From NCBI GenBank assembly GCA_964398665.1, contig CAYNNN010000005.1:2025-66024 (forward strand): 64,000 nt of DNA, given 5' to 3'. This document shows positions 15,150-58,076 of the stretch, one piece after another. The stretch comes from an uncultured Gammaproteobacteria bacterium. GTDB lineage: Bacteria; Pseudomonadota; Gammaproteobacteria; CAYNNN01. A program made the position numbers and the translations under genes. The stretch's first letter is position 1, and each line of letters starts with the position of its first letter. Under the pieces are notes generated by a model. The model saw only the letters and a program-made list of their open reading frames with translations, did not search any database and was not told where the DNA came from.

Positions 15150-15527
15150 TCATATTTCGGCCACAATGCCCCAGATTTCCAGCGTGGGGGGTAGCAGCCC
15201 CAACGCTGCACCAAGCGCCAGCGCTTCGGCTACGCCGATACCGTGGGACGAGGTGGGTGTAGCCAGCAGCGCCAGCTCCTCGCGCTGGAGTTTGAGCCAG
15301 GTTCCGGGAGGATACTGGGGGGCGATGACCGCATCCAGTAAAATCGCGTGGTCCACACCCTGAAAATGCTCAAGCAAGGTCATACCGGGACGGTCGAGCT
15401 TGATCAGCGTCAGATCCCCACGCGCAAGGGCTGCCCGCACGGATGGTGCCACAGGACAGTCCGTCGCCTGCCAACCCAACAGGTCGGCACCAAAGGGCGA
15501 GCCAACGGCGATAAGTATGCTTTTTAT
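15150..15527 (-). CDS. Hydrogenase maturation protease (group 3b associated); start codon appears to be ATA
   Basis: ILIAVGSPFGADLLG, ILLDAV, SSHGIGV. The in-frame ATA at 15527-15525 overlaps the large-subunit TAA. Confidence 0.8.
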   Translation of the reverse strand: MKSILIAVGSPFGADLLGWQATDCPVAPSVRAALARGDLTLIKLDRPGMTLLEHFQGVDHAILLDAVIAPQYPPGTWLKLQREELALLATPTSSHGIGVAEALALGAALGLLPPTLEIWGIVAEI

Positions 15528-17465: not shown

Positions 17466-17466
17466 A

Positions 17467-20360: not shown

Positions 20361-23300
20361 ACTCCAGCGCCTGCAAGGCCACCGTCCCAATCTGGTAGCC
20401 CTGCTGTTGCGCCAGATTGCGGATGAAATCCACCTGCTGCTTGGTCATTTCTCCAAACGAGAAATGTTGCGCGTAACCCGATACGCCCAGCAGGGTGGTC
20501 TCGGCCACGCAACCATAAACATGATCCACCGGTAGCCGGGTACCCTGCAATTTCAGGCCCTGAGCACCCGGCAACCGGGCCAGTCCCCCCGAAAGAATCT
20601 GGATGTGCGGATAGGCGTCAAATACGCTGTTGGCCACGTCCTTGGGCGTGGCAATATCGCAGATCACCACCACGCGCCTGGACAGATGCTGGGGGTAGAT
20701 CACCGGCCGAGCCGAGTTGGTACACGATACGATCACCGGGCAATCGGCCAAGTCAGTCAACTGGTCGGAGAGCTGAACCCAGCGCGCCCCGCCCAGTTCG
20801 GATTCGACCTGGGCGCGCAGGAAGGCCCCGATGGCCTCGGGCGGCGTGGCCTGCTGCATGAGCCGGGCATATGTCTGGGTCGTCGCCAAGGCTGCTGCCA
20901 GCCCGGATACCGGACCGCCGCGCTGCAAGGCCACCCAGGCATCGGCATACAGGGTATCCGCCACTTCACGCAGACCCTCGTCCTGCGCATTGCGACCGAA
21001 CAACCGGATCAGCGGCGAGTATTCAGCCAGGACCCGCGCACAGATCGAGCCAATGTTACCCTTGGCACCCACAACGGCAATAGGTGTTTCAGCCAGGATC
21101 AGGCCCTGGGCCTGTGCTGCACTGAGCGCCCCTTCAATGCCCAATGCAGCGGTGTAGGCATTGCCGGAAGTGAGGGCCAGCCCCGTTTCCGCGACAGCGG
21201 TGCAATTGAGGGTGACGATGGAGGTGTAGCCGCCAAAGCCGACCACCTTGCAACCGTGCTTGTGCGCCAGTTGCACGGCCTCGTCGATCTTGTACAGCAG
21301 CAGCTCGCGCTCTTCGGTGCGCATCATGGCCTCAAACAGCGCCCCGGTCAGCGGCAGGCCGATGATGGACAGATGCACCTGCGCTCCCGTGGCGGTGGTA
21401 ATGCGCATCTGCTGGGCGATGGCAATTTTGGAATACGGGAATAACTGGCGCAACAAAGGTTCGCGCAGGGCTTCCGGCACTTCGGCAAAGGAAGGTTCCA
21501 GTTGCAGCAGGGCGTCCAGATCTTCCAGGTGTCCGATATGCGCCACCCGAGGTTCATCACCGGGGGTCGTGTCGGTGTTAGGCGGCTGGCGGTCGCGCCA
21601 ATCCTGCACCGGCTCGCCTGGGTCGGTCTCGGCACCCACGACATAGCGCAACAACCGCCCGGCATTGGCATGACGGAAGATTTGGCACACATCGGCAAAT
21701 GCCGCAATGACCCGCTCCATTTCAGCCTCGGTAATCAACGCCGAGGGCAGGAAACGAATGGTGTTGCGGGTTTTGGTTGGTGCGATGCGGATTTGCTTGA
21801 CATTGAGCAAATAACCTGCAATCAGCATGTTGACCATTTCCATGCCATGCTGGGCGATCAGGCGCAGCATGAACGAGGGCGAATGTTGCTGGGGCGCCAG
21901 CTCAACACCCAGCATCAGGCCGGCCCCGCGCACTTCACGGATCACATCGGGATAATCCACGGCCAGTTGCCGCAATTTACCCAGAAACAACTGGCCACTG
22001 CGGGCACAGGTGGCCAGGATGTCTTCTTCTTGCAACAATTCCAGGGTACGCAGCGCCATCAGACAGCCCAGACGGTCTTCGGCAAAGGTTGAGCCGTGCA
22101 TATAGCCAAAATCGTCCTGATAACGACGTTCGCTGACCATCATGGCACTGACTTTGGTCAAACCACCGCCCAGACTCTTGGAAAAGGTGTAGTAATCTCC
22201 CCGCAGGCCAGAGAGTTCCGCTGCCGTGAAGGTACCCGTCCGGCCCATGCCGCACTGGATTTCATCCACCACGATGGGAAAACCGTACTCGTCCGCCAAC
22301 TGGCGTGCCGCCTGTAAAAACTCCGGCTTGACCGGGTGCATCCCGCCCTCGCCCTGAATCGGCTCCAGAAACAGGGCAGCGACCGGGTACCAGGGCTTGG
22401 CAGTGAGCGTGACGGCCCCCGCAGCATCCAGGGCAAACAGATAGATGGTCTGGCGCTCCGCCTCAATGGCTGCCTGCAAGGCGCCTGGCTCATGTCGAAT
22501 CCAGCGGGTGCGCAAGCCCATCCAGTGGAAAGGATGGCGGAAATCCGGGGACGCGGTCATGCTCAGGGCGCCGGTGGTCATGCCGTGGAACGCATGGGTC
22601 AGGGCCAGAAACAGCGGTTCCTGAGCCAGCACCTGACCATTGTGCGCCACCACGGCCTGATAGACTGCGGCCAGATCGGCACAGACCACGCCCAGCAGGG
22701 CAGCGGCTTCGGTATACAAGGTCGGCTGCACGGCTACCTGCCCCTTGTGATACTGGTCCAGCATCAGGGCGGCGAGGTTGTCCAGGTATTTTTCCTGCTG
22801 CAAGCCCTTGTTGCGCAGTTCCAGCTTGGCATGTTTGACCGCTGCTTCGACGGCCTCGGTGCCCGTGCTGGCCAAAGTGGCCACAAAGTGCTGCCCGGTC
22901 GCCTGATGCAGGCGCTCCGACAAGGCCCGGCCCAACTTGCCAGCGGCAATATTATTGCTGTGCTGCGCATTGATCGGCACCCCTTCGGCCAACAGCATCT
23001 GCATGTGCTGCACCAGCTCCGGGTGATTGTGACCCAGAATGGTGGAACCATAACCACCAACCATATCGAGGATTTCAACCTCCTGTCCCTGGATTTCGTA
23101 GTACAGATAATTCCCCTGGGCACGGGTATAGTGCTTGTCGGCCCCAATCACGGCGATGCGTCCGGCAATACCCCGACGGGCATAATGGCCATACAGCGCG
23201 GTATCGGGCAGCAATGCGGCTGCATCCGCTGTTGGCAGCGTCACAGTGCCCAGCAACTGGCCGATGCGTTCGGCCAGTTGGGCAATGGTTGGAGTTTCAA

Positions 23301-26300
23301 ACAGGGCACGGATCGGCAGTTCCACACCCAACTTGTCGCGCAGCTCGACGATCAGCCGGACCGCCAATTGTGAATACCCCCCGATTTCAAAGAAGTTTTC
23401 ATCAATGCCGATGTGATCGTTTTTCAGGATGTGCTGCCAGATGGCCAGAATGCGCTGCTCCAGGACATTACGCGGTGCGGCCAGGGCCTGAGGCCGGGTG
23501 GTCGTCACCGCAGGCAGGGCACGCCGGTCCACCTTGCCGTTGGAGGACAACGGTAAATTTTCCAGCAGCATGTAGAACTTCGGCACCATGTAGGCGGGCA
23601 GGCGCGCTTCCAGGTAACTACGCAGCTGGGTCAGGGTGAACTGACTGACCTGCGGCCCGCTGGCCCGGCGCAGGTAATGCACCGAATCCTGCAAGGCAGC
23701 AGCATACTGCGGGCTATGGAACTGCACCCCGCTGCGTTTGCCGCTGCGCCACAGCAGCTGGCTTTCCAGGCGGATAATCTCGCTCCCAATGGGCAGACGT
23801 ACACTGAGCGCAAACCGCTGGCCGGGTACCAGGTCGGCGGGTAAATCCAGTAGCTGTGCCCCGGCAGGCGCCAGACTGAGCAGCAAAGCTTCCGCTTCGC
23901 CCCCATCCCAACGCACCCGGCAGGGTTCCTGAGCGGGCAGACTCACGCTGTCCGGGTCAGCCAGCGGTCCACCCATGACCACACCGGCCTCGCTTTCCAT
24001 GACATAGGCCAGACTACGGCGCAGGTCGGTCAGCGCTGCTTCACCCTCCAGCTGCACGCACAACTGTTTTTGGGCCACCCAAAGAATTTCACCGTGATAT
24101 TCCCCCTGGGCCTCCAGCCCCGGCAAGTGCAGGCGCAGGCGCACATATTGGCGCGAATGCCACTCGCACAATTGCGTAGTCAGGGTCAGCGTCTGGGCCG
24201 AGAGCGCAGTCGCCTGCGCGGCAAACCAGGCCCCGGCATGGTCTTCCAGTTCACAGGCCACGGCGATTTCAGCCCGGGCCAGGTCCAGCAGGGAGACCAC
24301 GTAAGCCACCAGCTGTTTTTCGCCTGCCGCTTCGGTAACGGAAACCACGCATTCCTTGACCGCCGGATGCTGGGACAACACCGCCTCGATTTCGCCCAGT
24401 TCAATCCGGTAGCCCTGGATTTTGACCTGAAAATCTTCCCGGCCCAAAAATTCGATATTGCCGTCGGGCCAATAGCGGCCCAAATCTCCGGTGCGATATA
24501 GACGTTCCCCAGTATGGGGATTGCAGATGAAGCGGGCAGCGGTTTTCTCCGGATCGCGCCAGTAGCCCAGCGCCACCCCTACCCCGCCAATGTACAACTC
24601 ACCGGGCACCCAGGTCGGACAGGGCAAATACTGGCTATCCAGCACGTGGAAAGTCTGATTCACCATCGGGCGGCCATAAGGAATGCTGACCCAGTGCGGC
24701 TCCACCCGGGTTACATGATAGGCGATCGACCAGATCGAGGCTTCGGTGGCCCCACCCAAGCTGAAGAATTGCACCTGCGGAGCCAGCGTCCAGAGCGTGT
24801 CAGGCAGCTTCAGCGGAATCCAGTCGCCACTGAGCATCACCAGCCGCAACGAAGGGGGCAGGCTCAGGCGATGACCCTGGACATACTCCAGCAGGATCTT
24901 CATCAGGGCCGGGGCGGTGTTCCAGACGGTCACCTGATGCCGGACGGCCAGTTCCAGCCAATGGGCCGGATCACGCTGCCGCTGCGGGTCGGGCAGTATC
25001 AAGGCCCCGCCTGCGCCCAGGAGTCCGAAAATGTCGTACACCGACAGGTCAAAGGACAGCGAGGACAGGGCCAGCACCCGGTCGCTGTCCTGGACCCGGA
25101 ACCGGGTATTGACATCCACCACCGTGTTGATGGCACCTTGATGGTCGATCATCACGCCTTTGGGCGTGCCGGTCGAACCCGAGGTGAAGATGGTATAGGC
25201 CAGCGCATCCAGCCGCTGAACCGGCTCCAGCTCATCCCCCAGCTCTGCGGCAAACGGGTGAGCGTCCAGGGCAAAGACCTGCACCGTCTCGGGCCAGGTC
25301 AGCCGGGAAACCACCCAGCTCTGGCTCAGGACAAAGCGGGTATCGGTATGGGCCAGCAGATAATCGATCCGGGTCTGAGGCAGGGCCGGATCGATGGGTA
25401 AATAAGCCCCGCCGGCTTGCAGAATGCCCAGGACGGCGACAATCTGCTCCCAACCTTTTTCCGTGACCACGGCCACCAGTTCACCCGGCACCACCCCGCG
25501 CGCCCGCAAGGCCCGCCCAATCCGGTTGGTCTCCTGCCACAACTCCCCGTAACACCAGGTGCGATCGGCGGCAATCACGGCAATCTGGCTCGGGCGCAGT
25601 CTCGCCTGCAAGCCGACGCCTTCCTGCAACCGCAGGCCCGGTAGCGGCGCAGCCGTGGCATTGACCTGCGCCCGCTGCTCCAGTTGAGCAAGCGGTGTCA
25701 GTTGTGGCAGGGACTGCCAGCGGGCTTCATCCTGAGCCAGCCGGTGCAGGTAAGCCTGATAGGCGGCAAACATTTCATCCAGCAAACCCGCCGGGAACAA
25801 GGCTTCCACCGCATCCCAGCTATAAACCAGGTCAGCGCCGTCTTCCAGCACCTGATGATCCAGCCAGACTTGCGGGGTCTGGGACACGCTGTACACCCGC
25901 TGGCCCAGCCAGTCCACCGCTGAATCTGCCCCGGTCTGTAACCCCAGGGCACTGGTGAACACTACCGGCAGACTGACGTTCTGACGGCCCTCCAGGCGCG
26001 CCCATTCTTGCAGGATGCTCAGGCCATTGACCTGGCGATGCGCCAAATCCTGCCACAACTGCCGCTGTACCCGCTCGGCCCGTTCTTCAAAACTGGCCGC
26101 ATGACGCAAATCCACCGCCAGCGGCAGCAGGGCGGTAAAATCACCGACCAGTTGCTCCACTTCGGGATGGGCCGGAATCCGGTTGAATGTGGTCAGATTC
26201 AGGGTAAAGTGCGGGCGTTTGCTCCAGGTCGCCAGCACACAGGCAAACGCCGTGGCCAGCAACACCGAGGGCGTGAGATTGCCCTGCTGCCCACGCTGTT

Positions 26301-29300
26301 TCAGCGCCTGCCACAGCGGCGCGGCCAAGCGGCCCTGGCGTCGGACAAAGTGAGGCTTGCCTACGGTGGCCGGTGGACGCGCCAGCGGCAGTTCCGGCGC
26401 AGGTGGCAATTCTGCCAGCCGGGCGCGCCAGTATGCCAGCGCCGTCTGGTAGTCTGCCCGGCCCTGCCAGCTCCGCTCGGCCAGCACATAGTCACGAAAG
26501 CTCAGGCCCAGCGGCGCCAGCGCCTGGGTCGGGTTGGCATATAGCTCGCCCCACTGGCGAAACAGCAGTAACAAGCTCCAGACATCTGCAATCAGCAGGT
26601 CGATGCTGACATGCACCCGGGTCAAATCCTCGGGCAGGATGCTGGCACGAATTTCAAACAGCGGCCACAAGGCGGTGTCATAAACCTGATGCGACATCCG
26701 CGTCCGCACCGCTTCCAGGGCGGTGCTGCGTACCGCCCGATCGGCGTGGCGCAGATCGGCCACTGCTATCGCGTAAGGCGCAACTTCCGGCAGCATGCGC
26801 TGCTGGCCGTGGGCGTCCACCACCAGGCGCAAGGCCCCGTGGTGTTGAATCAGACGCTGCCAGGCCGCTTCCAGACGTGCGACATCAAGACCGGCGTGCT
26901 CGAATTCCGCATAAAAATGGCAGGCGACTCCACCCAATTCCAGGCTTTCGACCCGCCCCAGCCAGTAAGCGGTCTGGATTTCGTTGAGCGGAAACGGTTG
27001 CGCCTGCTGCGCCCGATCAGGCTGCAAGGTCAGTGCCTGACGCTCGACACCACTGGCCGCCAGGGCCTGCGCGGCCAACTCCCCTATCGTGGCAGCATTG
27101 CCCAGCAAACTCACCGGCAAGGTCCGGCCCAGATGCTGTTCCAAATCGCCCAGCAGCCGCAGGGCCGTCACTGAATCCACCCCCAGCGCCCCCAGCACGC
27201 TGCTGGCCTGCACCGTTGCAACCGGTACGTGCAGGCGCTCTGCGACTCGGCCCACAAGCCAGGCAGTGAGCTGGCCTGCGGCGGTCTCCAGTGCAGCCTG
27301 CACCGGTTCTGCGTCAGGTCCGGCCGACGTGGCCGGGACATCCCAGGCCCAGGCCAGATCCAACTGGCCCTGAAGATAGTCCTGCCTGGCACGTTGCCGT
27401 TGCACCTTGCCACTGGAAGTCTTGGGCAGGCCGCCAAAATTCAGCAGGACCAGTTGCTGGAGCTGCAATTCATGTTGCTCGGCCACTGCCCGGCGTACCG
27501 CCGTCAGGAGTTCTTCCGGATGTGGGGCCAGGGCGCTGCTGCTATCGCCGACCGCACGAAACTGACGCTTTTTCAAATCGCGCTGATAACGCCGATCCAC
27601 CTCGGCGACCATGATCAGTTGCGGTTCTCCGGCCGCACTGTCCACGGCAAAAGCAATGCTGTTGCCCACACCAATGGGCAGATAGCCACTGCTGCCCACC
27701 AATTCGCGCAGGGTCTCGTCCAGCGTCCATTCCAGATCCTGGGGATAATGATTGCGGCCCCGGATGATCAGCACATCTTTCAGGCGCCCGGTGATGAACA
27801 GCTCCCCGTCATGGATGAAACCCAGATCCCCGGTGCGCATGAACGGCCCTTCCCCGGTATCGCTCAAGTGCGCCCGGAACGTGCGTTCGGTCTCATCCTC
27901 ACGGCCCCAGTAGCCCTGAGCGACATGGCGGCCCTGCACCCAGATTTCCCCCACCCGGTTGCGCGGGGTGCGGGTCCGTTCCTCCGGATCGGCCAGGACA
28001 ACCTGCTCAAACCCCAAGGCACAGCCATTGCCCACAAAAGTCTGGCTCCCGCTGCTCAGGGTCGTCAGCATGACCTTGCCGGCCCGCAAGCCATCAGCCA
28101 CCACACCCTGATGCACTGGCCCCGCGCCCGGTTTACCCCCCGTCACCAGCAAGGTCGCTTCGGCCAGCCCATAGCTGGGATAGAACGCTTCCCGGCTAAA
28201 ACCCAAAGGCGCGTAAGTCTTGGCAAAGCGATCCAGACTCTTGGGATTGACCGGCTCGGCACCGGTGAGCAAAAAGCGCCAGGTCGACAAGTCCAGGCCC
28301 GCCTGGGCAGCCGGGTCTATTTCATCCACACACAGATCAAAGGCAAAATTGGGGGCGATAGAGGCCGTGGCCCGAAACCGGCTCATGGCCGTCAGCCAGC
28401 GCAGCGGTTTTTGCAAAAAGGCAGCCGGGGGCATGAAGATACAGCGCATGCCCCGGTACAATGGGAATAGCAACAGGCCAATCAGGCCCATATCGTGAAA
28501 CAGGGGCAGCCAGCCGCACCCGACATCCTGTTCGGTCAGGCCAAAACCGTCCTCCATCATCCGCAGGTTGGTCAGCAGATTGGTATGACTGACCATCACG
28601 CCCTTGGGCGCCCCGGTTGACCCCGAGGTGTATTGCAGCAAGGCTAGGTCATCACCTTGCAGCCTGGGCATGGCCCAGCGCTCGGCATCCGTCAGGACAA
28701 CCTGATCCGTCACCAGCCAGTGCAGGGCCTTGAGCGCCGGCACTTCATCCAGCATCGGCTCCAGGGTTTGTTGAATGCCACGGGTAGTCAACACGGCCGC
28801 CGGCCGGGCATCCTGAATGATGGCACTGAGGCGGCGCAGATTGCGGTTCCGCCGGGGTGGATAGGCCGGAACGGCGATCACGCCGGCATATAGACAGCCA
28901 AAGAACGCACTGATGAACTCCAGTCCGGAGGGGTAAAACAGCAGGGCACGTTCCCCTGCCAGACCCAGACCCTGCAATTGCGCAGCGATGGCGCGGGCCT
29001 GCTTGTCCAGCAATGCATAATCAATCGGCTGGCCATCCCCCTCACCGTCGGGCAGGAACCGGTAGGCTTCCGCTTCGGGACGCAATTTGGCCCGAGTGCG
29101 CAACACATCCACCAGGGTCTCGTAAGCCAGGCCCTTGTTGCCATACTCAAACAGCATCAGACGGACTTTGGGCAGGAAGCGTTCCTGCGGCGGATACACC
29201 GGCTTGTCGATAAAGGCATCCACCCGCGCCTGGGTGATGGCATTCTTGACCAGTTCCACATCCTGGCCATAAGCCGTCACCAACACCCGTTTGGTGCGCG

Positions 29301-29547
29301 GGTAATGCTCATAGACATGGGCCAGCAATTCGATACCCTGAATGCCGGGCATGCGCTGGTCAGATAGCACCAGGGCTATTTCAGCCGTATCCGTACTCAG
29401 GTAGGTGAGCAGCTCCAGGGCCTCTTCCCCGCTGGCGGCGGTGACGATTTGATAATCCTCAGCGAAATGTTCGGTCAGAATGCGGGCCAAGGATTCCCGC
29501 ACCCCCTCTTCATCGTCCACCAGCACGATATAAGGCTGATTGTCCAC
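20347..29547 (-). CDS. 3066-aa hybrid megasynthetase: REC - FAAL - ACP - Cy - A(Cys, with PilZ-like insert) - PCP - class III aminotransferase - acyl-ACP-reductase-like
   Basis: REC (VLVDD, SDQRMP, VTAY, DKP); FAAL (LQYTSGSTG, WLPLFHDMGL, YGLAEATL); ACP (GVDSV); Cy (FPLNEIQTAY, DLLIAD); A (FDLSVYD, LSGDWIP, GGATEASIWS, GKVDR); PCP (IGGYS); PLP enzyme (VDEIQCGMGRTG, FSKSLGGG); Rossmann reductase (GFGGYTS, TSGN, VVGAKGNIG). Confidence 0.9.
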   Translation of the reverse strand: MDNQPYIVLVDDEEGVRESLARILTEHFAEDYQIVTAASGEEALELLTYLSTDTAEIALVLSDQRMPGIQGIELLAHVYEHYPRTKRVLVTAYGQDVELVKNAITQARVDAFIDKPVYPPQERFLPKVRLMLFEYGNKGLAYETLVDVLRTRAKLRPEAEAYRFLPDGEGDGQPIDYALLDKQARAIAAQLQGLGLAGERALLFYPSGLEFISAFFGCLYAGVIAVPAYPPRRNRNLRRLSAIIQDARPAAVLTTRGIQQTLEPMLDEVPALKALHWLVTDQVVLTDAERWAMPRLQGDDLALLQYTSGSTGAPKGVMVSHTNLLTNLRMMEDGFGLTEQDVGCGWLPLFHDMGLIGLLLFPLYRGMRCIFMPPAAFLQKPLRWLTAMSRFRATASIAPNFAFDLCVDEIDPAAQAGLDLSTWRFLLTGAEPVNPKSLDRFAKTYAPLGFSREAFYPSYGLAEATLLVTGGKPGAGPVHQGVVADGLRAGKVMLTTLSSGSQTFVGNGCALGFEQVVLADPEERTRTPRNRVGEIWVQGRHVAQGYWGREDETERTFRAHLSDTGEGPFMRTGDLGFIHDGELFITGRLKDVLIIRGRNHYPQDLEWTLDETLRELVGSSGYLPIGVGNSIAFAVDSAAGEPQLIMVAEVDRRYQRDLKKRQFRAVGDSSSALAPHPEELLTAVRRAVAEQHELQLQQLVLLNFGGLPKTSSGKVQRQRARQDYLQGQLDLAWAWDVPATSAGPDAEPVQAALETAAGQLTAWLVGRVAERLHVPVATVQASSVLGALGVDSVTALRLLGDLEQHLGRTLPVSLLGNAATIGELAAQALAASGVERQALTLQPDRAQQAQPFPLNEIQTAYWLGRVESLELGGVACHFYAEFEHAGLDVARLEAAWQRLIQHHGALRLVVDAHGQQRMLPEVAPYAIAVADLRHADRAVRSTALEAVRTRMSHQVYDTALWPLFEIRASILPEDLTRVHVSIDLLIADVWSLLLLFRQWGELYANPTQALAPLGLSFRDYVLAERSWQGRADYQTALAYWRARLAELPPAPELPLARPPATVGKPHFVRRQGRLAAPLWQALKQRGQQGNLTPSVLLATAFACVLATWSKRPHFTLNLTTFNRIPAHPEVEQLVGDFTALLPLAVDLRHAASFEERAERVQRQLWQDLAHRQVNGLSILQEWARLEGRQNVSLPVVFTSALGLQTGADSAVDWLGQRVYSVSQTPQVWLDHQVLEDGADLVYSWDAVEALFPAGLLDEMFAAYQAYLHRLAQDEARWQSLPQLTPLAQLEQRAQVNATAAPLPGLRLQEGVGLQARLRPSQIAVIAADRTWCYGELWQETNRIGRALRARGVVPGELVAVVTEKGWEQIVAVLGILQAGGAYLPIDPALPQTRIDYLLAHTDTRFVLSQSWVVSRLTWPETVQVFALDAHPFAAELGDELEPVQRLDALAYTIFTSGSTGTPKGVMIDHQGAINTVVDVNTRFRVQDSDRVLALSSLSFDLSVYDIFGLLGAGGALILPDPQRQRDPAHWLELAVRHQVTVWNTAPALMKILLEYVQGHRLSLPPSLRLVMLSGDWIPLKLPDTLWTLAPQVQFFSLGGATEASIWSIAYHVTRVEPHWVSIPYGRPMVNQTFHVLDSQYLPCPTWVPGELYIGGVGVALGYWRDPEKTAARFICNPHTGERLYRTGDLGRYWPDGNIEFLGREDFQVKIQGYRIELGEIEAVLSQHPAVKECVVSVTEAAGEKQLVAYVVSLLDLARAEIAVACELEDHAGAWFAAQATALSAQTLTLTTQLCEWHSRQYVRLRLHLPGLEAQGEYHGEILWVAQKQLCVQLEGEAALTDLRRSLAYVMESEAGVVMGGPLADPDSVSLPAQEPCRVRWDGGEAEALLLSLAPAGAQLLDLPADLVPGQRFALSVRLPIGSEIIRLESQLLWRSGKRSGVQFHSPQYAAALQDSVHYLRRASGPQVSQFTLTQLRSYLEARLPAYMVPKFYMLLENLPLSSNGKVDRRALPAVTTTRPQALAAPRNVLEQRILAIWQHILKNDHIGIDENFFEIGGYSQLAVRLIVELRDKLGVELPIRALFETPTIAQLAERIGQLLGTVTLPTADAAALLPDTALYGHYARRGIAGRIAVIGADKHYTRAQGNYLYYEIQGQEVEILDMVGGYGSTILGHNHPELVQHMQMLLAEGVPINAQHSNNIAAGKLGRALSERLHQATGQHFVATLASTGTEAVEAAVKHAKLELRNKGLQQEKYLDNLAALMLDQYHKGQVAVQPTLYTEAAALLGVVCADLAAVYQAVVAHNGQVLAQEPLFLALTHAFHGMTTGALSMTASPDFRHPFHWMGLRTRWIRHEPGALQAAIEAERQTIYLFALDAAGAVTLTAKPWYPVAALFLEPIQGEGGMHPVKPEFLQAARQLADEYGFPIVVDEIQCGMGRTGTFTAAELSGLRGDYYTFSKSLGGGLTKVSAMMVSERRYQDDFGYMHGSTFAEDRLGCLMALRTLELLQEEDILATCARSGQLFLGKLRQLAVDYPDVIREVRGAGLMLGVELAPQQHSPSFMLRLIAQHGMEMVNMLIAGYLLNVKQIRIAPTKTRNTIRFLPSALITEAEMERVIAAFADVCQIFRHANAGRLLRYVVGAETDPGEPVQDWRDRQPPNTDTTPGDEPRVAHIGHLEDLDALLQLEPSFAEVPEALREPLLRQLFPYSKIAIAQQMRITTATGAQVHLSIIGLPLTGALFEAMMRTEERELLLYKIDEAVQLAHKHGCKVVGFGGYTSIVTLNCTAVAETGLALTSGNAYTAALGIEGALSAAQAQGLILAETPIAVVGAKGNIGSICARVLAEYSPLIRLFGRNAQDEGLREVADTLYADAWVALQRGGPVSGLAAALATTQTYARLMQQATPPEAIGAFLRAQVESELGGARWVQLSDQLTDLADCPVIVSCTNSARPVIYPQHLSRRVVVICDIATPKDVANSVFDAYPHIQILSGGLARLPGAQGLKLQGTRLPVDHVYGCVAETTLLGVSGYAQHFSFGEMTKQQVDFIRNLAQQQGYQIGTVALQALEYAGH

Positions 29548-29578
29548 GTAAGCACTCCCCCTAATACTAATAATGAAT

Positions 29579-31081
29579 TCAACGCCCGCCGTGCGCTATC
29601 AGCGGCAAGGTCAGAACAAACCGGGTTTCACCAGGACGAGAACGCACCTGCAGACTGCCCTGATGACCCTCCTCGATGATGCGCTTGGCATCGAACAATC
29701 CCAGCCCCGTGCCCTTCTTGCCGCTTTTGGTCGTGACAAACGGCTTGAAAATTTCCGCCTGCAAGGCGGCCGGAATGCCTTCCTTGCCGTTGTCCAGAAT
29801 TTCTGCGCTGATCTGCCCGGAACCCGCCTGGGTCGTCAGGGTGATTTCCCCCCCTTCCCCAACGGCATCAATGGCATTTTCGATCAAGTAGACAAAGCAG
29901 TACATCAGGTCCACCGGGAACCCCGACAGCGGCGGCAATTCGGCAAATTGCGAGTTGATCTTGATCCCCTTGAGCCGAAAGGACAGCATGTCCAGGGCAC
30001 TGCCAATCACCTGATTCAGGTTGATATGATCGGAGGGTTTGGCACGCTCCGGCTGGGCGGCATTCAGCACCATGAAGATTTCCTTGGAAAGCTGGGTCGC
30101 ATTGCTGCCCGTGTTACGCAACTGCGCCCCCACCTGCACCACCACGCGCACCAGCTCCAGCCAGCGGTCCAGCGGCCCCAGCAATTCCGCCAGCATCTGC
30201 AACTGGGGGGCCGTGAGCAAATGTCTGGCCGCCAGACTGTAATGCTCCCGCTTCAACCCCAGGCCCGCGCCCTGCGCAGCCGCCTGCAACCTGGCAGCCG
30301 CCTGCAGGATTTCCAGCGAAGTCGGCAGACGCTGAACCAGGGCTTGTTCAAATACCGCCTGCAATACTGCCAATCCCGCCTGCAACTCGGTCTCAGTCTG
30401 CGTGCCCAGCCACGGGATACCCGTCGTGAGCAGCCAACGCACATCCTGGGTCAGATTGGGCTGGGCGCTTTCTATCGCCACTGCCGGATTCTTCAACCGG
30501 TGGGACAGGCTGGACAGCAGGCGGCTGGTGATGGTGGCACGTTCACTCTGAATCAGCTTGACCTGCGTTTCCCGCAGGCTGGCCAAGGCCTGGGAAAGTT
30601 CGCTGGTGCGTTTTTCCAGATCACGTTTGTATTGCTGTTCCTTGCGCTGATAGAAATATTTCTCGCAGGCATGTTTGACCTTGAGGCGCATCTCCATTTC
30701 TGGCGCCCCCTTGACGATATAAGACTCAAACCCGTAACTGACGATCTCGGAAATGTTGTGTTCATCATCATGGCCGGTGTGCATGATGATGGGCACGTGC
30801 GGGAATTTGCGCCAGATGCGTCGGGAAGCCTCAAAGCCTGACATGGTGGGCATTTTGGCATCCATCACCACGCAGGCAATGTCGTCAGTCATGCTGTCTA
30901 GGGCTTCCTCGCCGCTGGAGGCCAGGGAGACCTCGTAATCCTGGAAGACCTTGCGCAAAATGGCCAGGGCTGCATCCGAATCATCCACCAGCAGCAACCC
31001 GACCCGTGTTTCACCCTCGGGCAAAAACGCCGCCGCCGCAGGGGCCGGATGTCCTGCTGCGCAAGGCGCTTCAGTTACCAT
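29579..31081 (-). CDS. Hybrid REC-histidine kinase (cytoplasmic)
   Basis: REC LLVDD, VMDAKMP, HTG, VKG; H-box SHRLKNP; N-box LIENAIDA; DNG; FKPFVTTK; GTGLGL. No hydrophobic segment. Confidence 0.88.
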   Translation of the reverse strand: MVTEAPCAAGHPAPAAAAFLPEGETRVGLLLVDDSDAALAILRKVFQDYEVSLASSGEEALDSMTDDIACVVMDAKMPTMSGFEASRRIWRKFPHVPIIMHTGHDDEHNISEIVSYGFESYIVKGAPEMEMRLKVKHACEKYFYQRKEQQYKRDLEKRTSELSQALASLRETQVKLIQSERATITSRLLSSLSHRLKNPAVAIESAQPNLTQDVRWLLTTGIPWLGTQTETELQAGLAVLQAVFEQALVQRLPTSLEILQAAARLQAAAQGAGLGLKREHYSLAARHLLTAPQLQMLAELLGPLDRWLELVRVVVQVGAQLRNTGSNATQLSKEIFMVLNAAQPERAKPSDHINLNQVIGSALDMLSFRLKGIKINSQFAELPPLSGFPVDLMYCFVYLIENAIDAVGEGGEITLTTQAGSGQISAEILDNGKEGIPAALQAEIFKPFVTTKSGKKGTGLGLFDAKRIIEEGHQGSLQVRSRPGETRFVLTLPLIAHGGR

Positions 31082-31093: not shown

Positions 31094-32365
31094 CTAGAAG
31101 TGATAATTCAGACGGAGCTGAACCAGACTGTCATCGCGGGAGCTATAGAGGTAATCAATCTCGTCCTGGTTAAAAAACAGCAGGGCATCCAGATTCAGTT
31201 TCCAGGCTTCGCCCAGGCGCCGGCTACCTTCCAGCTTGATCAGATCCCCATGCCCGTCGAGGTCATGCCCCCAGGCCAGCAATGCGGAAGTATCGGCCGC
31301 ATCATTCAGACCCAGACGCAGGCCGACAAACAGATCGTTGGCAAAAGCCGAATTGGCCAGTTCATCGCGGTCATCGTACAAATATTCCACCAGCAGGTTC
31401 AGTTCGGCCCCGGCGATCCCGGCATCGCTGAAGGCATATTCAAAGCCCCCGGTGAAGGCGAAATAATCATTTTCCAACCCCAACAAATCTTCCTGACCAC
31501 TCCGGTGGATGGCTTCCAGCTTCCACAGCCAGCTCTCGTTGGCCCAGAGTACCTCCAGCCCGGTCTGGTCAATCTGCTCGTAATAAGGCGCCAGCACAAA
31601 GCGTGCATCGGGGGTGACGGCAATACGGAAACTGGGGTCGCGGCTGGTGCCGCTAAAATGCGACAACGCCAGTTCCAGATCGCCCAGCAGCAGGTGATAG
31701 CGAGCAGCAAAATCCACATGCTGTTGTTTGTCAGGATCTTCATACTGGGTCAGGTCGGTGTCCACGTACGGCTCAAACCGTAGCCGACCCTCGGCGCCCG
31801 GAAAGGTGCGTTCCCGGAAATAAGGCAGGACAAACAGGCTCAAGGTACCCGACCCCTGCGCCCAGTCCAGGCGCACCATCGGCTGGCCCAGCTTGTCCTC
31901 GCCTTCCGGAAATTCAACCAGATCAGTCTGGTTGACGATATCCACCAGATGCTGAAACTCCGTGACGCCCCAGAAAACCTTCCCGACCCCAAGCTGAAGA
32001 TTCAGATCACTACCCAGCGCCCGACTCCAGCTCAGTTCCCGGATATCGGCATGACTACGTTCGGAATCAGCGCTATCCAGACGCACAAACGGTCTGAAGA
32101 CCCAGCGACCCGAGGCAGCCGTATATTGATATTCCGGCTCGGCCTGAAATCCCAGGCTGTGCTCTTCTTGATCCGGGTACAGCGGGTCTTCAAAGAACAG
32201 CCGACCTTCCAGCCCTACATAACCCGACCAGCCCGACTTGGATGCCGCATCATCGGCAACCCGCTTGTCCTTGTGCGCGACCTCAAGCGCATCAGCCCAA
32301 ACGGACCCGGCCCCCACCAGTAACCCAAGCGCCAGCGCCAGCCAGCCCCCCTGTCGTTGCAACAT
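31094..32365 (-). CDS. Outer-membrane beta-barrel of the MMPL/LolA-like-associated type
   Basis: Signal peptide, DIREL, GVGKVFWGVTE...LVDIVNQTD, alternating beta-strands, terminal LNYHF. Confidence 0.75.
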   Translation of the reverse strand: MLQRQGGWLALALGLLVGAGSVWADALEVAHKDKRVADDAASKSGWSGYVGLEGRLFFEDPLYPDQEEHSLGFQAEPEYQYTAASGRWVFRPFVRLDSADSERSHADIRELSWSRALGSDLNLQLGVGKVFWGVTEFQHLVDIVNQTDLVEFPEGEDKLGQPMVRLDWAQGSGTLSLFVLPYFRERTFPGAEGRLRFEPYVDTDLTQYEDPDKQQHVDFAARYHLLLGDLELALSHFSGTSRDPSFRIAVTPDARFVLAPYYEQIDQTGLEVLWANESWLWKLEAIHRSGQEDLLGLENDYFAFTGGFEYAFSDAGIAGAELNLLVEYLYDDRDELANSAFANDLFVGLRLGLNDAADTSALLAWGHDLDGHGDLIKLEGSRRLGEAWKLNLDALLFFNQDEIDYLYSSRDDSLVQLRLNYHF

Positions 32366-32418
32366 GACACACTCCCCCAAGCATTTTAATTATCATTGCA
32401 AATTGGCATGCAGACCGA

Positions 32419-33825
32419 TCAGGAACCGCGTTCCAGCGCATTCGGGCTGAATTGCTCCGCTGTCAGGCCGGAACGGAACTGATAGTTTTTCCACAGCAGC
32501 CGCGTGGTCTTGCTATTCTGGCGATTTTGCATCAGATATTCCTCAGCCCGCCAGTAACGCCCCAGATATTGTTGATATTTATTGATTTCCAGAGTCTTCA
32601 GCAAGTCGCCCTTGCGATCATAGTAGCTGACCTTGCGCAGCAACAGATCCTGTTGGTCGATCCAGCGTTCCTGCCGGGTATAACCCGACTTGGCATCTAC
32701 CGGATAGGCATCCACCACAAAGCAGGTCCTGTCACCACACGCCTCCTCACGCAAGAATTTATATTGATATTTTTCGACTTCCTGAGTGCTCAGATCCTCA
32801 TAGGCAAATTCACTGCCCACAAAGGAGCCGGATTTATTGGCTGAGCTGATGCGCTTGACCCGCTTCAGGGCCGGCAGGTACAGCCACTGGTCATCAGCGT
32901 CAGTCTTGTGGCTATGCGTCAACAGGGCTGTTCCGGCAATGTCCGCCGGGCGGTTGAACAACACCAGGCTTTTATCGCCATCACCGGCAGCCTCCAGCGT
33001 GCTGTAGCTGATATAGCGCGTAACCTCATCGCCATTGGGATTACTCAGAACCATGATGATGTCGGCACGAAAATCTCCAAACCCGGTATCGCGGCGGTCG
33101 GCCTCCTGCACGATGGCCAGGCCCTTGGCTTCGGGGTCCATCCCCGGCGTCAATACCTGTGCCAGGGCCGTGATCGGCGGCGCCGCCACCGCAGCCGCCG
33201 TGGCTACGGCGGGTACTGGCTCAGGCGCCGGTTTTTCCACCGGCTGCTCAGCCACCCGTTCTGCGGGTTTGGGTTTGGCCACAACCTCCGCCGGCTTTTC
33301 CACCACTGACTTTTCCACCGCTGGTGTGCTCACAGGCACCGGGTCAGCAGTCACCGTGCGCGGGGCCGGCTTAGGCTTGGGTTTGGGCTTGGCGCGCACA
33401 GGCTCGGGGGCCACTTCGGCGGCTTCAACCGCTTCCTCTGCCACTGGCTGCGCCTTGGGCTTGACCCGCGATTTTTGCGCCTTGGGCGTTTTGCTCGCCG
33501 GCGCCACTGCCTCAAATTGCACCGCCAGGGTATGGGCCTTGTTCACCGCCTGAAAAGTGTAACTGGTGACTGCGCCGACTTCAGCCCCGTCCACCGACAC
33601 CGACTGCACCTGATAACCAGGGTCAGGCAATATCACGAAAGCCCGGTCATGACCCGCCTCGACGGGAATATCCCCTTTAGGGGTCACACTGCCCCCGGCG
33701 CCCGCCACAGCGGTGATGACATGCGTTCTGGCCGGCGCAGCTTCCTTGACCGGTTCCGAAGTACAGGCCACCAGACCCAACAGGGCGCCGGCCCAGAAAA
33801 GCTGTCGTAGTTTGTCATACACCAT
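32419..33825 (-). CDS. Lipoprotein: InlB-B-like repeat, Pro/Ala/Lys linker and LolA-like (lipoprotein-sorting) domain
   Basis: Lipobox LVAC; C-terminal GTALL, DDQWLYLPALKRVKRISS, SFVGSEFAYEDL, YYDRKGDLLK. Confidence 0.82.
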   Translation of the reverse strand: MVYDKLRQLFWAGALLGLVACTSEPVKEAAPARTHVITAVAGAGGSVTPKGDIPVEAGHDRAFVILPDPGYQVQSVSVDGAEVGAVTSYTFQAVNKAHTLAVQFEAVAPASKTPKAQKSRVKPKAQPVAEEAVEAAEVAPEPVRAKPKPKPKPAPRTVTADPVPVSTPAVEKSVVEKPAEVVAKPKPAERVAEQPVEKPAPEPVPAVATAAAVAAPPITALAQVLTPGMDPEAKGLAIVQEADRRDTGFGDFRADIIMVLSNPNGDEVTRYISYSTLEAAGDGDKSLVLFNRPADIAGTALLTHSHKTDADDQWLYLPALKRVKRISSANKSGSFVGSEFAYEDLSTQEVEKYQYKFLREEACGDRTCFVVDAYPVDAKSGYTRQERWIDQQDLLLRKVSYYDRKGDLLKTLEINKYQQYLGRYWRAEEYLMQNRQNSKTTRLLWKNYQFRSGLTAEQFSPNALERGS

Positions 33826-33864: not shown

Positions 33865-36800
33865 TCAGCCCACCTGGGGTCTGGACAGCCATTTGGCCTG
33901 GGTCGCTTCCAGCCACAGCACCAGAGGTGCCAGCATCAGCATATCCAGGGCCAGTGCCAGAACGAACGTCATGGCCGTCAACATGCCCATATCAGAGTTC
34001 ACGGCGAAACCGGAACTGGCGAGAATCAGGAAGCCCCCGGCCAGAATGATGGAGGTAAATAACATGGATGGCCCGACATGCAGGAAAGTCTCGCGGATGG
34101 CCTGATGAGCGGCCAGACGGCGGCGCCGGGCGGCAGCATAATGGGCCATGAAATGTACGGAGTCATCCACCACGATACCCTGCGTCATGGAAAACACCAC
34201 GGCACTGGCCAAACCGACCTGCCCGACCAGATAACCCCAGATGCCAAAGGCCAGCAAGGCCGGGAAAATATTCGGCACCAGGCTGACCAGCCCCAGGGAA
34301 ATGCTGCGCAAGGCAATCAGCATGATCCCGGATACCAGGAACAGGGCCAGAACGTTGCCGTTGAGCATGCTGTTGATGTTGCGTTCGGATATCTTGGCAA
34401 ACATCAGGGACGGGCTGGCACCTCGGGCGTGCATGATCGGCGGGACATTCTCCTGGAGCCATTCATAAGCGCGCTGCTCCAGGGCAATGAGCTGGGCATT
34501 GCTGACATTGCGCAAGGTGACGGTAAAACGGGTGGCGGACTCATCCAGATTGATCTGGTTATTTAAATCCAGTCCACGGGGCAATGACAGCTTGTACAGC
34601 AGCAGATACTGCGCGGCGGTATTGCGATCTTCGGGAATCCGGGCATAAAACGGGTCGTTATTGTGCATGTTGGCGTTGAGACGCTTCACGATATCCGTGA
34701 TGGCGCTGACGTGCATGACGCCTTCCTGCTTGCGATACCAGGTAGCAAACTGCTCAATCCGGTTGAGATACAAGGGGTCGTTGATTCCACCCGGTTCACC
34801 GGTTTTCAGCGAATACTCAATACTGTCCATGCCGGTGAGATTATCGCGGATGAAATCCGTCTCGACCCGAAACCGGTAGCTGTGGTCAAAGTATTCGACA
34901 AAATTGTCATCCAGGACGATCAGCATGACGCCGGCCGCCACCAGCGGCATCAGGGTCAGGGAACCTACCAGGATGGGCCGCTGACGCCGGATGGTAAAAT
35001 CGGCCCAACGGTTCAATTGCCTGTCCAGCCAGGGCTGCTTGCGCGGATTCCTCGGGGGCCGAAATGGCAGCAACATCATCAGAGCCGGCAGGAACAGCAT
35101 GGAATAAATCAGGGCGTACGCCACGCCGACGGCAACGATGTTGCCCAAATCCCGCAGCGGTGGGGCATCGCTGTAGTTCATGCTGAGAAAACCGATGGCA
35201 TTGGTCAGGGTGGTCAGAAATACCGGCATCAGATTCAGACGCATCGCGGTGATCAGGGCTTCGCGCTTGCTGTCCCCCTGACGCAATTGATGGAAGAATG
35301 CGGTCAGAAAGTGCAGGCTGTCACCCACCGCCACGGTCAGGATGATCGTGGGGGCCGCCGCAGAAGGGGTGGACAAGGCCGCGCCAAACCAGCCAAAAAT
35401 CCCCATCGCACTGAGCGAGGCCGCTGCGATAATCACGCAGATCGCAAGCACACCGGTCACCGAACGCAGCAGCACCCCGGCCAGCAGGACCACAAACAGC
35501 AGCATGACCGGATACAGATGCTCCATATCCCGCAAGGTGGCCTCCAGAAAGGCCGCATCCTGCATCACCATGCCACTCAGATAGATCGGGATGTTAGGAT
35601 ATTTAGCCTGAAACTGACGCACCAGTTGCTGGGAGTATTCGACGATCTGGCGGTTCTCGTCTGTGGATTTGCCCGGCAGTTGCAGGCTGACATTAATCCC
35701 GGTGACATGCCCAGACGGTGAAACCAGCCGATTCAGCAGCAGCGGTTCGGCCAGGGCAATTTTCCGCGCTGTATCAAGTTGCTCCGGGGTGAATTGAGCA
35801 GCACCCGAGGCCAGATCCCGGACGATCAGCTCATCTTCACGGGCCTGGGTATGCTGGAAGTTGGTCACGGAGTCCACCCGACTGGAATAGGGTATCTTCC
35901 AGGCCGCCTCCGTCAGCCACTCTACGGCGGTCAGCGTTTCCTGAGTAAATACATCGCCCTGAGGCGCCTTGACCACAAACAGGGCGTTGTAGTTTTTTGC
36001 ATAGGTATGTTCCAGGGCATCAAAAGCCCGCAATTCGGGGTTGGCGTCGCTGAAATAGACCCGATAATCATCCGTGAAGCCGATGTAATGCAAGCCGGCA
36101 ATGCTGCCCGCACCCAGGGCCAGGGTCAGCAACAAAAATAGCCAGGGATACGCTGTCACCCAGCGGCCCAGCCACTCACCCCAACTGACGCCGGGTATTT
36201 CGGGCACGGGCGTAGTACCGTGCGTGGCCGTGGTCGAACTGCGTTCTGACGCAAGTTCCGATGTTGTCGCAGGTGACGTGGACACAACCGGCGCAGTGTC
36301 GGTTCTGGAGGCTTCGCGTGGCTTGACGGTGGGCAGTACCTGCGGGGTGGCCTCGTTGACCGCCTTTTGCAGCGAAGCTTCAAACTCGCGTTTGACCTGG
36401 ATGAGATTGCGCAGGCGGGCCACCAGTTCCAGCGGACGCACCGGCTTGATCAGATAATCGTTGGCCCCGGCTTCAAAGACGCGCAACAGGGTCTGTTCGT
36501 CCTGGTCGGAAGTGATGACCACGATGGGCAGACGCTGACGTGCCGGGTCAGGCAACTGACGCACGGTCGCAGTCAGCACATCGCCATCCATGTTCCCCTC
36601 CAGTCGCAAATCCGTCAGGATCAGGTCATAGGGTCGCGCCTTGATCGCAGCCAGCGCGCTGAGGGCATCGGTGAAATGCTCCACCGTATAATGCTGTTCC
36701 TTCAGGGCCTTCTGAATGGCATACGCATAAGTGCGGCTGTCTTCCACCAGACAGATCAGACCCTGACTTTCTTGTGCCGCCCGCGTTTGAGACAGGCTGT

Positions 36801-39373: not shown

Positions 39374-39386
39374 GGTCGGATTAGCC

Positions 39387-58075: not shown

Positions 58076-58076
58076 G

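Follow-up and report, generated by a model that had tools for sequence, protein, structure and literature searches.

The window, by which we mean the whole stretch of 64,000 nucleotides analysed here, carries on its minus strand a co-oriented gene set headed by the gene for a REC-LuxR/GerE response regulator (38750-39418), and because this regulator heads the set, transcriptional control is probably also present. The other genes, all on the same strand, encode a type II thioesterase (38013-38753) and an Sfp-type phosphopantetheinyl transferase (37324-38016), both recognised, like the regulator, by Pfam; a REC-REC-MMPL transporter (33865-37230; Pfam MMPL and two Response_reg matches, 140.6 bits); a LolA-like protein that is a candidate periplasmic lipid carrier (32419-33825; Pfam LolA_like, 213.8 bits); a 428-aa protein without a Pfam match (31094-32380); a REC-controlled histidine kinase of 500 aa (29579-31081; Pfam REC and HATPase_c); and a synthetase of 3066 aa, encoded by 3066 codons in one continuous frame (20347-29547). 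The set comprises five receivers, two of which are on the exporter, and Pfam detected no Hpt protein in it. Counterparts of the REC-MMPL gene are found in the related loci L005 and L002; L005, L002 and L212 all keep the LolA-like gene beside that for the MMPL protein, and the position of the 428-aa protein is kept in L005 (415 aa). A scan with ArgH places the source organism only loosely, its matches, mostly from Gammaproteobacteria, being 60-63% identical.

The domains of the synthetase follow in the order REC-FAAL-ACP-Cy-A(Cys, PilZ-like insert)-PCP-aminotransferase-acyl-ACP-reductase-like (AAR/PigE-like) domain, and Pfam reports Response_reg, AMP-binding/FAAL, PP-binding, Condensation, AMP-binding, PP-binding and Aminotran_3 in that order. 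Translation starts at a GTG codon (29545-29547), 7 nt after a Shine-Dalgarno motif that was read from the sequence (GGGGGAG, 29555-29561, minus strand), and the orthologues have their N-termini at the same point (MDKQP, MDHKP, MDNKL). The FAAL starter domain (27343-29115, minus strand, about aa 145-735), identified by phmmer and Foldseek, matches the olefin-synthase FAAL 7r7g with 542 bits and the Legionella FAAL 3kxw with 414 bits, compared with 326-347 bits for FadD32 and no more than 100 bits for acyl-CoA and 4-coumarate ligases. The Foldseek comparison of the modelled domain gives a TM of 0.94 and an rmsd of 2.6 A with 7r7g, and a TM of 0.82-0.85 with the FadD32 structures. The FAAL of the Synechococcus olefin synthase (PDB 7R7E-G) is 45% identical to that of the window over the aligned part, and in both enzymes the ACP lies in cis.

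Judged by alignment and residue counts, the FAAL-specific insertion of about 20 residues is present in the N-terminal domain: counted on the translation, 67 residues lead from YGLAEAT to GEIWV in the FAAL and 44 from GGATEAS to GELYI in the A domain of the same protein, and the insertion segment aligns to 7r7g with gaps of just 1 and 2 residues. This insertion is said to have been described by Arora et al. 2009 as the defining mark of FAALs. The acyl carrier domain for the fatty acyl group (27028-27270, minus strand, about aa 760-840) is one of the two stretches that match Pfam PP-binding, and its counterpart in the orthologue P0123 spans aa 761-825. An ACP placed in cis after the FAAL and followed by a condensation-type domain is the layout that would be expected for acyl transfer to a carrier and not to CoA. 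The translation contains the Cy motif DLLIAD and the A-domain pocket residues DLYNMSLIWK, and the enzyme is predicted to be a synthetase of the lipo-thiazoline type that couples cysteine to a fatty acid. The reductase and class III aminotransferase of PigE in prodigiosin biosynthesis (PDB 4PPM) are of the same two types as the C-terminal domains of the synthetase, where, however, their order is reversed and they are fused to an NRPS module; by analogy, this pair suggests aldehyde release followed by transamination, which bears on the product and not on the REC.

The receiver domain and its junction with the FAAL

The REC domain of the synthetase occupies aa 1-135 (29143-29547, minus strand), scores 60.8 bits for Pfam Response_reg (PF00072) over aa 7-119, where the cut-off is 30.2, and matches 62 PDB receivers at E<=1e-3. 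The first-pass annotation had placed an intact receiver at this N-terminus, and all of the residues that it named are indeed there: the acidic pair D11-D12 of the Mg2+ site after beta1 (VLVDDEE), the acceptor D63, with which the predicted beta3 ends (LSDQRMP), T91 (LVTAYG) and K115, followed by P116 (FIDKP), to which F112 can be added. The range given for it, 29180-29547, corresponds to aa 1-122; the full domain with alpha5 extends over about 29143-29547. The receiver quintet has been defined in the literature, and a conserved beta5 aromatic is typical of terminal, not relay, receivers (PMC9981736). A hub receiver of the FATGUY type was also considered and rejected, as beta4 of the synthetase REC reads LVTAYG.

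In the AF2 model (overall pLDDT 85.8, pTM 0.73), the domain is predicted to adopt the canonical (beta-alpha)5 fold over aa 6-135, with DSSP assigning beta1 to 6-10, alpha1 to 14-28, beta2 to 33-37, alpha2 to 40-52, beta3 to 57-63, alpha3 to 71-81, beta4 to 86-92, alpha4 to 97-105, beta5 to 111-115 and alpha5 to 120-135. The pLDDT is 85-97 at aa 1-90 and just 66-79 over aa 91-140, which comprise the output face and the linker. The linker itself, GNKGLAYET (29116-29142, minus strand, aa 136-144), is a coil in the model between alpha5 of the REC and the first FAAL helix (aa 145-155), and the alignment to 7r7g opens at residue 7 of that structure, which corresponds to aa 142 of the window protein.

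A stop or frameshift between the REC and the FAAL, which the first-pass annotation had named as an observation that would speak against a fusion, is absent, and Logan contigs from two studies (activated sludge 2021; sludge 2024), one of which is possibly the source sample of the window itself, have 0 differences and 0 gaps across 28800-29800. The window stems from a metagenome-type assembly and is contained in activated-sludge runs, so that the erroneous joining of a single-domain receiver gene to a synthetase gene during assembly or sequencing might be suspected; the identity of the junction in both studies, the same in-frame fusion in P0007 (56% identity, from another sample) and in P0123 (about 80%, from another assembly), and the spacing of about 9 residues between the domains with no internal start that has a ribosome-binding site make such an artefact extremely improbable. 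An internal start yielding a REC-less FAAL is likewise unlikely, as Met131 lacks a Shine-Dalgarno sequence at a usable distance.

Conservation and distribution of the fusion

D11, D12, D63, T91, F112 and K115(-P116) are invariant in the 4 known homologues, among which REC identity is 51-86%, and relatives whose RECs are 86%, 54% and 51% identical to that of the window keep all six residues. Between the window and L005, its closest relative, the REC shows 88.8% amino-acid identity and a dN of 0.078, compared with 78.4% and 0.16 for the FAAL and dN values of 0.35 for the ACP and 0.28 for Cy; since dS, at about 1.9 or above, is saturated, dN/dS is only a rough guide, and we rely on dN and amino-acid identity. 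Of the four domains compared, none is as well conserved as the REC, and this points to a working receiver and not a relic. The fusion, the intact residues, their conservation and the gene neighbourhood are direct observations.

The nearest sequence relatives of this REC sit on enzymes (REC-GGDEF, REC-kinase and REC-oxidoreductase proteins), and the best genome matches reach 35-44% identity. The idea that it was copied recently from a receiver nearby was rejected, its identity to any other REC of the window being at most 29%. Among PDB receivers, HupR1 (2jk1) and the REC-HD proteins 3hv2 and 2rjn come closest. HupR, which is reported to act unphosphorylated, counts against a phosphorylation switch and, together with the moderate pLDDT of the alpha4-beta5-alpha5 region, would fit a REC that works without phosphorylation, be it as a ligand-binding pseudo-receiver or in a constitutive role in structure or dimerisation. 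Receivers that are independent of phosphorylation usually lose some of the residues concerned, whereas here all residues for Mg2+ binding, phosphoryl transfer and switching are invariant in homologues down to 51% identity, and we regard this explanation as quite improbable.

In relatives without a REC, the FAAL begins within about 10-20 residues of the N-terminus, which suggests that the REC is an addition that replaced nothing. No REC precedes the FAAL in any of the 118 other FAAL-headed megasynthases listed, nor in the other ranked matches, and most of these FAALs start at the N-terminus. Scanning GTDB genomes, JGI metagenomes and a set of 1.84 billion representative proteins brought up no other REC-FAAL protein; in the GTDB and JGI scans with an alignment of 4 REC sequences, only receivers of at most 44% identity were recovered, none with a FAAL within 10 kb. 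A word-index search with the REC alone, length-gated to megasynthases, returned the window protein and two hybrid kinases only, and as it missed P0007 it is uninformative on absence. No description of REC-FAAL, REC-NRPS or PilZ-NRPS proteins was found in the literature searched, a body that most papers of subscription journals lie outside. On the sequences compared, the REC-FAAL fusion is rare, not unique, and extends the known range of REC-enzyme fusions.

One relative (L003/L004) has the homologous REC fused to the C-terminal half of the A domain, with the FAAL encoded by a separate gene, which means that a covalent tie to the starter domain is not obligatory and that the target of the REC need not be the FAAL. 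The FAAL of L003 carries an inserted PilZ domain with intact c-di-GMP motifs, RQHAR (RxxxR) and NLSPTG (NxSxxG), while the PilZ insert is in the A domain in the window, where it is degenerate, and in L001. A PilZ domain inside the FAAL of a relative indicates that signal domains have been recruited to the loading module more than once, and the motifs of this related synthetase lend independent support to protein-level control of the family by signals.

The neighbouring kinase and candidate phosphodonors

As the first-pass annotation had noted, a gene for a REC-kinase lies upstream of the synthetase gene at a distance of exactly 31 nt, its stop codon being at 29579-29581. Pfam recognises the REC (70.6 bits) and HATPase_c (66.1 bits, aa 391-494) and does not detect HisKA in this protein. 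Its layout is that of an N-terminal REC with an intact phosphorylation site, a DHp histidine and a CA domain, with neither a sensor nor a membrane domain, and D33, D34, D74, T102 and K124 of the REC as well as H194 in the H-box (SLSH194RLKNP) are invariant in 5 orthologues. Alignment of the H-box to its counterpart in ZraS is weak, and the CA domain matches ZraS as well as LvrB (8vc9, 52.6 bits). LvrB of Leptospira, the prototype of REC-controlled kinases, has the same arrangement of an N-terminal REC, a helical linker, a DHp histidine and a CA domain, from which the window kinase differs in that its CA domain follows the H-box only after about 130 extra residues. In LvrB, phosphorylation of the REC frees the catalytic domains (PMC13269768).

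In both loci where the flank belongs to the cluster, the window and L005, the REC-kinase gene is directly upstream of the synthetase gene, the L005 orthologue being 75% identical and 20 nt away in the same position; the genes upstream of the REC-synthetase in L001 do not encode a kinase. Kinase orthologues at 42-43% identity lie between MMPL and LolA-like genes (L212 and L213) or beside a single REC (L215), on short contigs without a synthetase gene, and a GTDB scan with the kinase alignment recovered no orthologue. As the orthologues travel with genes of the MMPL/LolA-like export machinery, the kinase may primarily serve the exporter. Furthermore, alpha1 of the synthetase REC is closer to that of the REC-LuxR regulator than to that of the MMPL receivers, so another kinase may be the phosphodonor.

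The association of the kinase with the export module on other contigs and the number of receivers per kinase in the locus would also fit a REC that serves as a phosphate sink or relay intermediate for a kinase controlling the exporter or the LuxR regulator, with the attached enzyme unaffected. For such a role, the REC would have to be neither fused to an enzyme of 3000 residues nor better conserved than the catalytic domains; the gene set is without an Hpt protein, and the invariant F112 and T91, in a domain whose beta4 (LVTAYG) lacks a FATGUY-type motif, are terminal allosteric features. We therefore consider a sink or relay very improbable.

A possible phosphorylation switch of chain initiation

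We put at about even the chance that a functional, phosphorylatable terminal REC sets the activity of the loading module, with the neighbouring kinase as the likeliest donor. That phosphorylation takes place, which donor serves it, which step it controls and in which direction are matters that we infer here, and the first-pass proposal that chain initiation is switched by phosphorylation is upheld in part: the REC is intact, in frame, invariant in its key residues and the best conserved of the domains compared, but, as L003/L004 shows, its linkage to the FAAL is not obligatory. Under this proposal, the first 135 residues would form a working receiver, open to phosphorylation and of the terminal allosteric type, and phosphorylation of D63 would change the alpha4-beta5-alpha5 face, with T91 and F112 as the switch pair. 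This face ends in alpha5, which would pass the change through the 9-residue linker to the first FAAL helix, and the phosphorylation state would decide on fatty-acid adenylation and transfer to the ACP by the loading module. The likeliest phosphodonor would be the LvrB-type kinase encoded 31 nt upstream; being itself switched by another kinase, it could time synthesis with the REC-REC-MMPL/LolA-like export machinery. Taken together, this suggests that, besides control through gene expression, the assembly line may have a switch in the protein itself.

Two routes from receiver to enzyme can be envisaged. In the REC-methylesterase CheB, which like the synthetase has an N-terminal receiver, a short linker and a catalytic domain, the REC obstructs the active site for as long as it is unphosphorylated, and its phosphorylation lifts the block. 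By analogy, CheB may be the simplest model for gating of the FAAL, where a steric or allosteric block could be released or imposed; unlike in CheB, the output domain of the synthetase is not a hydrolase but an adenylate-forming loading domain that heads an assembly line of 3066 residues. Alternatively, the REC could drive dimerisation, as in PleD and WspR. PleD and WspR (REC-GGDEF) and RpfG (REC-HD-GYP), which have the nearest receivers by sequence and have the DQ.MPG.G and KP motifs in common with the synthetase REC, are of a type that is activated via phosphorylation-driven oligomerisation, but their output domains are different and the synthetase makes no nucleotide second messenger. Control of a FAAL by phosphorylation has a precedent in mycobacterial FadD32, whose activity at the entry of a lipid assembly line is lowered when Ser/Thr kinases reversibly phosphorylate it (Le et al. 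2016, as cited in PMC12845086). In that case, however, eukaryotic-type kinases act on the FAAL itself and there is no fused two-component receiver.

The REC could instead be a phosphorylation-dependent docking or assembly domain. Once phosphorylated, it would form dimers or bind to the kinase or to the receivers on the exporter, and so bring the soluble synthetase to the membrane exporter for direct hand-over of the lipid product, with FAAL catalysis unchanged. Coupling of a synthase to an MmpL protein is known in mycobacteria (MmpL7-PpsE). The five receivers of the co-oriented set with two on the exporter, the kinase family that travels with MMPL/LolA-like genes, and the REC of L003, which is on a fragment of a split A domain that needs its partner fragment, all fit an assembly role. 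With the MMPL receivers, from which it was not derived, the synthetase REC shares only 20% identity, and the very short linker in the AF2 model favours intramolecular coupling; docking without an effect on catalysis appears unlikely to us on balance.

The reading in which the REC sets the activity of the loading module can be extended, tentatively, to a synthetase family gated by two signalling currencies, namely the REC on the loading module and the PilZ inserts, in which a single REC-controlled kinase would phosphorylate the REC-REC-MMPL exporter together with the synthetase. A lipid signal or surfactant would then be made and exported under one common switch, which would act within seconds and independently of transcription. 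We consider this possible, with the balance tilted against it. No description of such gating of assembly lines by two signalling currencies was found in the literature searched.

To our knowledge, NRPS and polyketide assembly lines are generally regarded as regulated by transcription, and the protein-level control that we know of mainly concerns carrier priming and MbtH-like partners, while some adenylate-forming enzymes are subject to lysine acetylation or Ser/Thr phosphorylation. A REC in the loading module would, if the proposal is true, connect chain initiation directly to a two-component pathway, and the REC-FAAL-ACP part, of about 845 residues, is small enough for direct testing. If the switch is confirmed, the census of response regulators would gain an output class that is new to it, and the engineering of lipopeptide synthetases a portable on/off module; the switch would also help to explain how the synthesis of a lipid product is coupled to an MMPL/LolA-like exporter and to c-di-GMP signalling in this uncultured gammaproteobacterium of activated sludge.

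A receiver domain at the head of the synthetase

The synthetase is encoded on the minus strand by a frame of 9201 nt (20347-29547, 3066 aa), whose 5' end is the REC region of the first-pass annotation. The frame opens with a GTG codon (29545-29547), 7 nt upstream of which lies a GGGGGAG Shine-Dalgarno sequence, and the start falls at the equivalent residue in three homologues (MDKQP, MDHKP, MDNKL). In the Pfam annotation, Response_reg (aa 7-119; 60.8 bits, cut-off 30.2) is followed by AMP-binding and a DIP2-like C-terminal part, which together make up the FAAL, and then by PP-binding, Condensation, a second AMP-binding, a sub-threshold PilZ (1871-1946), PP-binding, Aminotran_3 and a Rossmann-type domain. 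The REC carries D11-D12, D63 (LSDQRMP), T91, F112 and K115-P116, which make up the complete receiver quintet of PMC9981736. In an AlphaFold2 model of aa 1-745 (mean pLDDT 85.8, pTM 0.73), it is predicted to adopt the canonical strand-helix order from beta1 (6-10) through alpha5 (120-135); the domain described earlier as an intact REC is thus borne out by profile score, residues and predicted fold.

In the same model, a 9-residue coil (136-144) connects the REC to the first FAAL helix (145-155). The FAAL aligns from residue 7 of the crystal chain of the Synechococcus olefin-synthase FAAL (542 bits), on which its model superposes with a TM of 0.94 and an rmsd of 2.6 A. Since the FAAL of REC-less relatives starts no more than about 10-20 residues from the N-terminus, the REC is a clean N-terminal addition with a very short tether. 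No chain in the PDB spans both REC and FAAL.

In the translation, the condensation domain contains the heterocyclization motif DLLIAD, and the pocket residues of the A domain read DLYNMSLIWK, which we take to be the Stachelhaus code for cysteine. The C-terminal domain (aa about 2650-3066, window 20350-21600) gives matches to the PigE reductase part (4ppm) and to cyanobacterial acyl-ACP reductase (6jzq), and is preceded by a class III aminotransferase (21710-23130), an arrangement with the look of PigE-type reduce-then-transaminate release but with the domain order reversed. From these features, the product is likely a 2-alkyl-thiazoline carboxyl thioester that leaves the enzyme as an aldehyde and is then transaminated.

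Integrity, conservation and rearrangement of the fusion

The region 28800-29800 is spanned, with 0 differences and 0 gaps, by Logan contigs from two studies (activated sludge 2021 and sludge 2024), although one of the two samples may be the source sample of the window itself, and fragments from 2 further studies agree. P0007, a homologue of 3113 aa from another sample (56% full-length identity), carries the same fusion in frame, as does P0123, from GCA_973639405.1 (about 80% identity over aa 1-745). No stop or frameshift separates REC from FAAL, and given the identical junctions and the two fused homologues, an artefact is extremely improbable.

The six functional REC residues are invariant across four homologues (86%, 54% and 51% REC identity to the window). 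Compared with the closest relative, the REC is the most conserved of four domains (88.8% amino acid identity, dN 0.078, versus 78.4% and 0.16 for the FAAL, 57% and 0.35 for the ACP, and 66% and 0.28 for the Cy domain; dS is saturated, so that dN/dS ratios are rough). Against P0007, the REC (55%) is level with the FAAL (57%), and the PilZ-like insert is far lower (30%); this insert, located inside the A domain of the window protein (aa about 1776-1995), has degenerate motifs. The invariant residues and the conservation pattern argue for a working phospho-switch rather than a decaying or merely structural appendage, and make a phosphorylation-independent structural role rather improbable.

A different arrangement is found in the related locus L003/L004 (L003:2579-10208), seen in two samples. 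Its first gene (P0137) joins a homologous REC (53% identity) to a stretch corresponding to window aa 1589-2093, which comprises the latter half of the A domain plus the PCP, and to a thioesterase; the second gene is phosphatidylserine-decarboxylase-like, and the third (1565 aa) is the exact complement, comprising FAAL-ACP-Cy and the first half of the A domain (window aa 143-1589). The break, at the equivalent of aa 1589, lies just ahead of the SLGGATE motif; either the A domain is split by nature, or the locus has been rearranged and may be inactive. Because the REC of P0137 keeps its phospho-site though it is not attached to the FAAL, the REC target may be the whole module or module assembly; that the REC is a phosphorylation-dependent docking or assembly domain is an unlikely but credible alternative. 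In the third gene (L003:5511-10208), the N-terminal FAAL domain contains an inserted PilZ domain (product aa 117-200; 22.2 bits, cut-off 22.5), with both c-di-GMP-binding motifs intact, RxxxR (RQHAR) and [D/N]xSxxG (NLSPTG). This gain of a second, unrelated signaling domain by the loading domain of the family independently supports protein-level signal control.

The adjoining kinase and candidate phosphodonors

The synthetase belongs to a co-oriented set on the minus strand, consisting, in this order, of a REC-LuxR regulator (38750-39418), a type II thioesterase (38013-38753), an Sfp-type PPTase (37324-38016), a REC-REC-MMPL protein (33865-37230), a LolA-like protein (32419-33825), a 428-aa protein without a family match (31094-32380), the REC-kinase (29579-31081), the synthetase and an RlpA-like protein (19566-20390). 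The REC-kinase gene is thus directly upstream of the synthetase, as had been noted before, and its N-terminal receiver is intact. Gene order is the same in L005, the locus of P0123, where the REC-kinase ends 20 nt ahead of the REC-synthetase. The synthetase frame of L005, the closest relative, has an in-frame TAG (L005:13115-13117) at the position of window Tyr1039, beyond which it stays in register (76% identical); the TAG arose either from a recent nonsense mutation or through an error in sequencing GCA_973639405.1. Directly downstream of the window synthetase is a NiFe-hydrogenase-related cluster (15524-19421: large subunit, Oxidored_q6 small subunit, NAD-binding/FeS subunit and 4Fe-4S protein); an Oxidored_q6 gene also adjoins the REC-synthetase of L001. 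Elsewhere in the window are a second export-and-signaling set (47765-56241), comprising a REC-PAS-GGDEF-EAL protein (47765-49936) overlapping an MMPL-histidine-kinase-core fusion (49926-53282), a DUF1302 barrel (53272-55197) and a LolA-like protein (55207-56241), and a type III-B CRISPR effector set (56487-63975, all minus strand) with Cmr2/Cas10, Cmr3, several RAMP proteins and a Cas_APE2256 (Csm6-type) accessory.

His194 of the REC-kinase is part of SLSHRLKNP, a stretch with weak alignment to the H-box of ZraS, and the CA domain is ZraS/LvrB-like. The layout, with REC ahead of the kinase core, is that of LvrB, in which REC phosphorylation releases the catalytic domains (PMC13269768), and implies that a further kinase acts upstream. 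The family is tiny, its five clusters showing identities of 75%, then 43%, 42% and 42%, before a drop to 26%. Orthologues of 42-43% lie between MMPL and LolA-like genes on the short contigs L212/L213 (L212:12-3852) and, on L215, next to a lone REC and a FecR-like gene, without a synthetase on any of these contigs; on L214, the orthologue has no informative neighbors. Upstream of its REC-synthetase, L001 has genes for a hydrogenase small subunit and an aldose epimerase, and L002 encodes a synthetase of the same architecture lacking REC and PilZ, together with a thioesterase, REC-MMPL, a LolA-like protein and a hybrid kinase. Because orthologues occur by MMPL/LolA-like genes without a synthetase, and L001 has no upstream kinase, the REC-kinase looks like primarily a dedicated regulator of an MMPL/LolA-like export module. 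That it adjoins the synthetase REC is consistent with a common phosphodonor without proving one. Helix alpha1 of the synthetase REC (29143-29547; EGVRESLARIL) is closer to that of the REC-LuxR regulator (38750-39418; PEVRSSLCFLL) than to those of the MMPL receivers (TAAYAITQTL, TYAYAIQKAL), a weak hint that the synthetase and this transcription factor might share a kinase.

The reading we favor, with even confidence, is that the REC is terminal and allosteric: its phosphorylation, probably by the upstream REC-controlled kinase, would act through alpha4-beta5-alpha5 and the short linker to set loading-module activity, in coordination with the REC-REC-MMPL exporter. The analysis establishes the fusion, its residues, predicted fold, conservation, rarity and gene context; phosphorylation, the donor, the controlled step and the sign of the effect are what we infer here. 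That the REC instead serves as a phosphate sink or relay is quite improbable.

Rarity and kinship of the receiver

Among the best 150 of 60,454 HMMER matches to synthetase aa 1-260 in 1.84 billion representative proteins, only P0123 has a REC ahead of the FAAL, and P0137 has one otherwise arranged; among the best 120 FAAL-headed megasynthases of a 5.8-billion-protein collection, PF00072 occurs only in the window protein and P0007. When GTDB species genomes and JGI metagenomes were scanned with the REC, the matches were all receivers of at most 44% identity, none with a FAAL within 10 kb. These nearest receivers carry GGDEF, kinase and thioredoxin-reductase-like output domains, and among solved structures HupR and REC-HD proteins come closest. 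The REC belongs to a receiver subfamily usually attached to enzymes. An origin as a copy of another window receiver was rejected (at most 29% identity to any). The sequence evidence confines the fusion to just a few metagenomic lineages of an uncultured, probably gammaproteobacterial, activated-sludge organism.

REC-enzyme fusions are well known from CheB, PleD/WspR and RpfG. Control of a FAAL by phosphorylation has a precedent in FadD32, which is controlled via Ser/Thr kinases (Le et al. 2016, cited in PMC12845086), whereas the FAAL considered here is fused to a two-component receiver. The literature searched yielded no description of a receiver as part of the loading module of an NRPS or FAAL. 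What appears to be new is not the REC-enzyme fusion as such but a receiver in an NRPS/FAAL loading module, which would surprise specialists and is directly testable.
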